Sequence record: OR896830.1
Origin: Escherichia phage LinBro
Strand: one strand, 5' to 3'
Length of the DNA stretch: 64,000 nucleotides
Notes under the pieces: model-generated
The model's input: the letters and a program-made list of their open reading frames with translations, nothing else
The model's database searches: none
Told to the model about the DNA's origin: nothing
Position numbers and translations under genes: made by a program
Part shown: piece after piece, positions 58,518 to 58,546 of the stretch
Layout: every line of letters begins with the position of its first letter
Position numbering within the stretch: position 1 is the stretch's first letter

Positions 58518-58546
58518 TTGACAATGTGTTTGATACCCTTTAATAT
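58518..58546 (+). promoter_or_regulatory. sigma70-like promoter at head of tRNA cluster
   Basis: TTGACA, 17-bp spacer, TAATAT; AGGGTAT / ATACCCT inverted repeat brackets the -35. Confidence 0.6.

Follow-up and report, generated by a model that had tools for sequence, protein, structure and literature searches.

Stem-loops superimposed on predicted promoters of the Felix O1-like phage LinBro resemble the promoter-early stem-loop cassettes of T4-like phages

Gene context and the promoter set

We analysed a stretch of 64,000 nucleotides from Escherichia phage LinBro (sequence record OR896830.1), which is called the window below. Its 56000-59000 region is 99.9% identical to that of Escherichia phage momo, and it shares 95-99% identity with more than 200 Felix O1-like phages (genus Felixounavirus), including wV8 and Felix O1; the LinBro window is thus of Felixounavirus origin. 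Felix O1-like phages are widely used in the typing and biocontrol of Salmonella and E. coli. The original Felix O1 genome paper reported only five promoters and left terminator read-through without explanation, and the promoters and terminators of Felix O1-like phages are merely listed in PMC3185647 and PMC4837284. We found no start-site or 3'-end data, and no report of dyads, for these phages in the literature searched.

An earlier note on this DNA pointed out four promoters overlapped by inverted repeats and proposed that the dyads are repressor operators or RNA stem-loops at the 5' ends of transcripts. These predicted promoters (named after the first base of the -35 hexamer) and the neighbouring genes are as follows.

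34229-36595: rIIA (PHROG profile), stop codon 36593-36595
36601..36630, plus strand: P36601, in the intergenic gap 36596-36674; -35 36601-36606, -10 TAGAAT 36625-36630
36675-37784: rIIB (PHROG profile)
57011..57054, plus strand: P57015, promoter of the Ro60-like gene, in the intergenic gap 57003-57083; -35 57015-57020, -10 TAAAGT 57039-57044
57084-58499: Ro60-like/vWFA protein of 471 aa (PHROG, RNA-binding protein; Pfam, DUF2828 and DUF7788)
58510..58546, plus strand: P58518, in the intergenic gap 58500-58664, with an A-rich stretch upstream; -35 TTGACA 58518-58523, -10 TAATAT 58541-58546
58609..58642, plus strand: P58609, second tandem tRNA promoter; -35 58609-58614, -10 TAAAGT 58633-58638
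58665-63571, plus strand: 26 tRNA genes

The Ro60-like gene lies directly 5' of the tRNA cluster. Homologues of its product at 30-47% identity occur in very diverse phages (Vibrio, Aeromonas, Campylobacter and Listeria phages and mycobacteriophages). In a search for more distant syntenic relatives, the identity of homologues fell from about 84% to 47% with nothing in between, and the loci with a homologue at 40% identity or less (L028-L032 and L072-L091) showed no synteny. Conservation is given for the gene and its flanks as taken from 27 viral and 15 metagenomic contigs of the genera Felixounavirus, Suspvirus and Mooglevirus. No Y-RNA-like family was detected by Rfam near the Ro60-like gene. 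At the gathering threshold, Rfam matched only tRNAs in the whole window, and the hairpins described below are thus outside every known RNA family.

The pattern TTGACA-N16-18-TAnnnT has 22 matches in the window against 4.6 expected, a four- to five-fold over-representation, and P58518, P57015, P36601 and P58609 each score 10-11 out of 12 as sigma-70 promoters. Promoter activity and the exact start sites in LinBro are predicted throughout. An A-rich stretch, TTTTAAAAAAG(T)nn, precedes the -35 hexamer at 57015, 58518, 58609, 56481, 46741 and 11483.

Two tandem promoters about 91 bp apart, both with the A-rich upstream stretch, head the tRNA cluster (58518-58664) in a layout resembling P1/P2 of rRNA operons, and tRNA-Pro starts about 20 nt past the second predicted start (P58609). 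The hexamer TAAAGT is the -10 of P57015, P58609 and the class B cassettes described below, and it also precedes the -35 by 2 nt at 36601 and 60006. At three sites (11483-11512, 46741-46769 and 56481-56509), the -35 is directly repeated as TTGACA-N6-TTGACA-N4-6-TAnnnT with an A-rich stretch upstream; two of the three are in divergent intergenic regions heading main transcription blocks. Four positions carry the string TTGACAAGGTG: 11495, 56493, 27495 and 7915 (minus strand). This string or the direct repeat may mark a binding site or define a second class of promoters.

Excess and conservation of the promoter dyads

All four dyads are present exactly where the earlier note placed them. To measure recurrence, we determined the longest perfect inverted repeat of each of the 16 TTGACA-N16-18-TAnnnT matches that are intergenic and on the transcribed strand, with 15 nt of flank included on both sides. 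The longest dyads were 10, 9, 9, 9, 8, 7 and 7 bp, and the remainder were 4-6 bp. Perfect dyads of at least 8 bp were thus found in 5 of the 16 promoters, compared with a background rate of about 0.5-2%; of 59-nt windows drawn at random from this genome, 0.5% have dyads of at least 9 bp and 7.5% have dyads of at least 7 bp. The recurrence is real and stronger than first noted, and the class B cassettes also carry dyads. Five strong sites (P58518, P57015, P36601, 27495 and 5120) each exceeded composition-matched shuffles, with an approximately 50-fold enrichment as a set, and the RNA folding z-scores of the strong sites, 27495 and 5120 included, were -3.3 to -6. In the shuffle test of each site, both promoter hexamers were held fixed. 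For P58518, P36601, P57015 and P58609, the shuffle p values were 0.0025, 0.005, 0.015 and 0.13, the folding z-scores were -3.4, -3.7, -3.3 and -2.25, and the folding energies were -12.6, -13.3, -15.6 and -6.7 kcal/mol, respectively. A 7-bp dyad at 60006 is within chance (p=0.08).

At P58518, one arm, AAAGGGTAT (58510-58518), adjoins the -35 hexamer, and the other, ATACCCTTT (58533-58541), adjoins the -10. The hairpin, which begins 11 nt past the stop codon of the Ro60-like gene, has 12 pairs (58510-58521 with 58530-58541) around a perfect 9-bp core. In 42 loci of the three genera, the arms are invariant except for a single A-to-G change, which gives a U·G pair; eight bases of the loop vary, and two inner G·U pairs are replaced by A-U or G-C in relatives.

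At P57015, the 5' arm TGACAGACT (57016-57024) consists of the -35 plus 4 nt, and the 3' arm AGTCTGTCA (57042-57050) begins with the final three bases of the -10 and ends at about +1. An inner helix (57017-57024 with 57042-57049) is accompanied by an outer helix of GGUG(U) with (A)CAUC. All 20 sequence variants retain the hairpin, with folding energies from -15 to -22.5 kcal/mol. In Mooglevirus, a different sequence replaces the 17-nt loop, the stem is extended to 11-12 pairs, and the change of the -10 from TAAAGT to TAGAGT adds a new pair to the stem. The outer helix occurs as GGUG/CAUC, GAUG/CAUC and GGUG/CACC. Among 16 variants of equal length, 3 of 26 paired positions vary compared with 9 of 17 loop positions (Fisher p=0.005; p=0.01 without the promoter hexamers), and all three variable paired positions keep pairing. 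A LexA box or CRP box in TGACAG...CTGTCA was rejected by eye because the order and spacing are wrong. A bidirectional promoter was also rejected: only P57015 among the sites has a promoter-like match on the minus strand (GTGACA-18-TAGAGT), and this match is lost in Mooglevirus.

P36601, between rIIA and rIIB, reads TTGACA-a-GGGGCT-ttga-AGCCCC-t-TAGAAT. Its GC-rich tetraloop hairpin, AAGGGGCT-ttga-AGCCCCTT (36606-36625), occupies the 18-nt spacer. The stem is kept in Felixounavirus, Suspvirus and Mooglevirus with the loops TTGA, TCAA, GAAA and GCAA, apart from a C·A mismatch in two loci.

The 7-bp dyad of P58609 consists of AACCACT (58614-58620, after the -35) and AGTGGTT (58636-58642, overlapping the end of the -10). 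It is weakened to -4.1 kcal/mol by a C-to-T change in 13 of 49 matched sequences, broken in one locus and lost in Mooglevirus, where a different 6-bp dyad is found. This dyad is probably not a selected structure. The dyads of P58518, P57015 and P36601 are conserved across three genera and are above chance, and only that of P58609 fails in both respects. The overall association of dyads with promoters is strongly non-random, and three of the four dyads are individually real.

Repeated cassettes and other promoter/hairpin sites

Two kinds of cassettes are repeated at 42.6-47.5 kb in five copies each, and the ten neighbouring ORFs have no Pfam family. They and two further sites are listed below.

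42640-42675, 43110-43145, 43490-43525, 44560-44595 and 45356-45391, plus strand: class B cassettes, -35 at 42640, 43110, 43490, 44560 and 45356
44195-44281, 45046-45146, 46279-46366, 46800-46884 and 47461-47528: class C cassettes
27495..27541, plus strand: promoter match TTGACA-18-TAGGCT, with the -10 within a 16-pair hairpin (27500-27535) followed by T6
5092..5139, minus strand: 5120 promoter, -35 5120-5115, -10 5097-5092, with a 13-bp dyad (5139-5127 with 5105-5093)

Class B copies sit between small ORFs without a Pfam family. They are built as TTTACA-n-GGGGCTTA-13 nt including the -10 TAAAGT-TAAGCCCC, and a conserved AGATAAAGAGCTTTAC leader, a Shine-Dalgarno sequence and ATG follow (gaTAAAGTacTTTACAaGGGGCTTAtagttcgaTAAAGTAAGCCCCagataaagagctttac...SD...ATG). 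The GC-rich stem of 8-9 bp begins right after the -35 and finishes just past the -10. P36601 (TAAAGTgtTTGACAaGGGGCTT...) is related to this cassette. We compared the 42-47 kb region in 23 viral contigs and obtained 123 class B instances with 46 distinct hairpins, which gave the decisive test of pairing. No variant lacks the TTTACA -35 or the TAnnnT at 17 nt, and the stem switches between GGGGCTTA/TAAGCCCC, GGGGCTTAA/TTAAGCCCC, GGGGCTATC/GATAGCCCC, GGGGCTA/TAGCCCC and GGGGTTTATA/TATAAACCCC. At stem positions 1-8 of the 46 distinct hairpins, there are 335 Watson-Crick pairs, 26 G·U, no A·C and 3 others. In a gap-free alignment of 39 variants, 91% of the cells are paired compared with 84.6% in shuffles (0/500), five pairs are altered on both sides, and the covariation score is 0.205 compared with 0.094 in shuffles (0/500). 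Sliding the partner by 1-3 columns reduces the pairing to 16-62%. A perfect 12-bp palindrome, TAAAGTACTTTA (42629-42640, and also in other class B copies), lies across the class B -35.

Class C is built as cTTGATT-17 nt-TAAATTactaatcaacGGGAGGTaataACCTCCCcactaagtaaagtccttaaactAGGAGAttcaaaaATG. In the example at 44226-44243, a GGGAGGT-aata-ACCTCCC hairpin is downstream of a -10-like TAAATT, and it would thus be a true 5' stem-loop of the transcript.

Breakpoints between the window and relatives were found at 42391/42702, 43330/43489, 44285/44252, 45149/45060, 45146/45411, 46367/46344, 46927/47457 and 47536/47457. With 42391 left out, all alignment breakpoints in 42-48 kb (against eight relatives) fall on class B or class C cassettes. 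The alignments frequently overlap at their ends there, as recombination between repeated cassettes would predict.

The 27495 hairpin has a 10-bp perfect core (p=0.0025) and folds at -23.5 kcal/mol (z -6.0); it is a canonical terminator with a promoter superimposed. At 5120 (-17.8 kcal/mol, z -4.7), the -35 is in the loop, and the -10 is in the 3' arm and T-tail. Perfect TTGACA promoters are also present at 33637-33688 (plus strand) and 53679-53630 (minus strand), with the -10 only 3-4 nt before canonical UNCG-loop terminators (AGGCTCC-tacg/ttcg-GGAGCCT-TTTTT). As their predicted start is inside the 5' arm, a new transcript would escape the terminator that stops the upstream RNA.

A 1.6-kb region at 47778-49424, where plus- and minus-strand gene blocks converge, has no ORF of 50 aa or more. 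It contains 27 copies of TGTTAA/TGTTAG on the plus strand, 10-30 times the density elsewhere in the window, and a 9-bp palindrome, CTATATAGT..ACTATATAG. An iteron-like origin is one possible identity of this region, and a protein-binding array is another.

Composite cassettes acting on upstream RNA

Promoter-early stem-loops (PeSLs) have been described in the T4-like phages RB49/phi1, PST and nt-1 (Arbiol et al. 2010, PMC2839356; Comeau et al. 2014, PMC4122927), the latter study having extended them to further T4-like phages. In a PeSL, an upstream stop codon is followed by an AT-rich stretch, a consensus sigma-70 promoter, a stem-loop (often a G-run/C-run), a Shine-Dalgarno sequence and a start codon. 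The stem-loop may lie between the boxes, over the -35, over the -10, upstream or downstream (five subclasses), most commonly between the boxes or over the -10. The RB49/phi1 promoters are very strong, one stem-loop cut lacZ expression as much as rrnB T1, and PeSLs flank ORFans and mediate insertions, deletions and mini-circles (PMC2839356). We inspected the RB49 sequence and found that the stem-loop tested with lacZ has no U-tract.

We consider it likely, at a probability of roughly 0.7, that the LinBro sites are composite promoter/stem-loop cassettes of the PeSL type, in which the hairpin acts on RNA from upstream and the embedded promoter restarts transcription. The evidence includes the pairing strand and the geometry. 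At the variable sites in all hairpins, 10 transitions lead to G·U and 1 to A·C (binomial p of about 0.006). This tolerance of G·U, and almost never of A·C, on the plus strand argues that a sense-strand hairpin is selected and not a double-stranded operator. Strand-biased C-to-T mutation was rejected as the source of the G·U pairs: the adjacent gene, taken as background, has 157 C/T to 118 A/G polymorphic sites, and C/T and A/G changes both contribute. At the sites near the Ro60-like gene, the evidence consists mostly of conservation and one-sided changes, with few true double compensatory changes. Counted from the predicted +1, the 5' arms of the four sites and of class B lie at -45 to -25, always upstream of the -10, and the predicted start (about 7 nt past the -10) is at or beyond the 3' arm. 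As the 5' arm is upstream of the predicted start, RNA from the promoter itself would lack the hairpin, and only RNA from the upstream gene can hold it. The proposed stem-loops at the 5' ends of transcripts thus hold as RNA stem-loops paired on the sense strand, but not as 5' ends. Two promoters in divergent regions with no co-oriented gene upstream (11483 and 56481) have dyads of at most 5 bp, which is consistent with a hairpin acting on RNA from an upstream gene, although n=2.

In the composite arrangement, a strong sigma-70 early promoter would be overlaid on a stem-loop between the upstream stop codon and the next ribosome site. Gaps of about 80 nt are too short for promoter and hairpin to stand side by side, which would account for their overlap. 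The stem-loop, formed around the -35 (P58518 and 5120), in the spacer (P36601) or enclosing the -10 (P57015 and class B), would terminate or attenuate the RNA from the upstream gene or cap its 3' end. The embedded promoter would begin a new transcript at the 3' arm or immediately beyond it, and this RNA, being free of the hairpin, would be unaffected. By analogy with the reporter assays on RB49 PeSLs, the hairpins may act as terminators or attenuators. T-rich tails are present only at P58518, 27495 and 5120, and the terminator scan flags 58510-58541 and 27500-27535. P57015, P36601, P58609 and class B have no T-run and are not flagged, and several of the loops are 13-17 nt. Since P57015, P36601 and P58609 are not terminator-like, and the P57015 loop is 17 nt, classical intrinsic termination is doubtful at these sites; as a speculation, the AU-rich -10 hexamer might substitute for a U-tract.

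Four other explanations were weighed. Chance complementarity between A-rich upstream stretches and T-rich spacers in AT-rich promoters could produce dyads such as those of P58609, weakened or lost in relatives, and of 60006, and it is the best reading for P58609 alone. It is refuted for P58518, P57015 and P36601, which exceed shuffles together with 27495 and 5120 in a set enriched about 50-fold and whose strong dyads are conserved with variable loops; as a general account it is highly improbable. Double-stranded operators, at which a dimeric repressor of the phage or host would shut off early promoters, would fit the positions of the dyads, since a protein bound over the -35, spacer and -10 would block RNA polymerase, and the transcription timing of Felix O1 is unknown (PMC3185647). 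Dyads over core promoter elements are also found in lambda OR/OL and lac O1, but unlike those operators the LinBro arms have no common half-site (AAAGGGTAT, TGACAGACT, AAGGGGCTT and AACCACT) and no fixed spacing, with gaps from 2-4 to 17 nt among the four dyads and up to 21 nt when further sites are counted; the arms covary, so that pairing and not sequence is selected. The distinction between G·U and A·C tolerated on one strand would be meaningless for duplex DNA, and P36601 relatives have GNRA-like or other tetraloops. The repressor-operator proposal is thus contradicted by these features, and we regard it as very unlikely.

A hairpin or cruciform in plus-strand single-stranded DNA might instead drive the shuffling of cassettes as a signal for recombination or replication, and any effect on transcription would then be secondary. 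The indel breakpoints on cassettes agree with this, Arbiol et al. (2010, PMC2839356) speculated about a target for a recombination protein and mini-circles have been reported, and tolerance of wobble fits too because G·T is the least destabilising DNA mismatch. We find this explanation unlikely because the sites on the Ro60/tRNA side and P36601 are unique, syntenic and without indels, homologous recombination between repeated cassettes of 60-90 nt requires no hairpin, and the tetraloops point to RNA. That the hairpins are 5' stem-loops of the RNAs of the same promoters, serving as stabilisers or translational operators, is extremely improbable: the separate class C cassette does have a hairpin downstream of a -10-like hexamer, but in the four sites and class B the 5' arm is no further downstream than the -35 or spacer, and the predicted +1 comes no earlier than the 3' arm.

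Comparison with PeSLs of T4-like phages

We compared the RB49 hyperplastic region directly, side by side, with the window cassettes. RB49 PeSL 211/210 (aaaaaAGTTGTTGACAggggatcacgtatccccTATACT...AGGAGAatcaaaaATG) has the layout of P36601, PeSL 205/204 (TTGACAatgattaaatGGAGTAgTAAGATACTCC) has that of class B, P57015 and P58609, and PeSL 193/192 (aacGGGAGTGT...ATACTCCCaac) resembles class C. The LinBro cassettes share the PeSL order of parts, down to the short leader and AGGAGA-N7-ATG. A near-consensus promoter, an AT-rich upstream stretch, a superimposed stem-loop and an intergenic position are found in LinBro, and class B and class C are in addition repeated beside ORFans with indel breakpoints; as in PeSLs, the position of the stem-loop varies. 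P57015, P58518 and P58609 are single-copy and thus are not repeats in a hyperplastic region. These sites of the Ro60/tRNA region differ from PeSLs in being AT-richer, in having loops of 14-17 nt and in occupying conserved rather than hyperplastic positions. The likeness to Rho-independent terminators is also partial: a hairpin lies just past the stop codon, and P58518, 27495 and 5120 have T-rich tails and are positive in the scan, whereas P57015, P36601, class B and P58609 have no U-tract, with the -10 hexamer in its place.

At LinBro 56481 and 60006, the upstream/-35 string TTAAAAAAGTTGTTGACA matches RB49 PeSLs without a difference over 16-19 nt, and at 58609 it nearly does (LinBro 56469-56487, 59991-60011 and 58597-58617; RB49, L092, 19152-19170, 18650-18667 and 23290-23310). 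A ribosome-site string, TAGGAGAtTCAAAAATG, differs by one base between LinBro and RB49. These shared strings may reflect convergence on the preferences of E. coli RNA polymerase and ribosomes, or an exchange of cassettes. As convergence is possible, we do not claim homology between the LinBro and RB49 cassettes, which have no demonstrable homology beyond motifs that RNA polymerase and the ribosome would select. LinBro belongs to Ounavirinae and not to Straboviridae, and its cassettes are known from sequence, while the reporter, terminator and mini-circle data are from RB49/phi1.

From the layout common to RB49 and Felix O1-like phages, the 16-19 nt string and the nearly identical ribosome-site string, one could propose a portable module that moves between unrelated coliphage families, or a hand-over device in which polymerase is released on the embedded promoter and feeds re-initiation. 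Either is unlikely. If a hand-over device were at work, upstream transcription would feed re-initiation rather than occlude the embedded promoter.

The promoter/stem-loop cassettes of LinBro are of an already known kind, that of PeSLs in T4-like phages, in a second phage family; in the literature searched, we found no earlier description of PeSL-type cassettes in Felix O1-like phages. Cassettes punctuating the early regions would provide a concrete, testable map of transcription units for Felix O1-like phages and would explain where differences in gene content between isolates arise. The PeSL idea, extended beyond T4-like phages, suggests convergence on a compact design in E. coli phages, or the exchange of modules.
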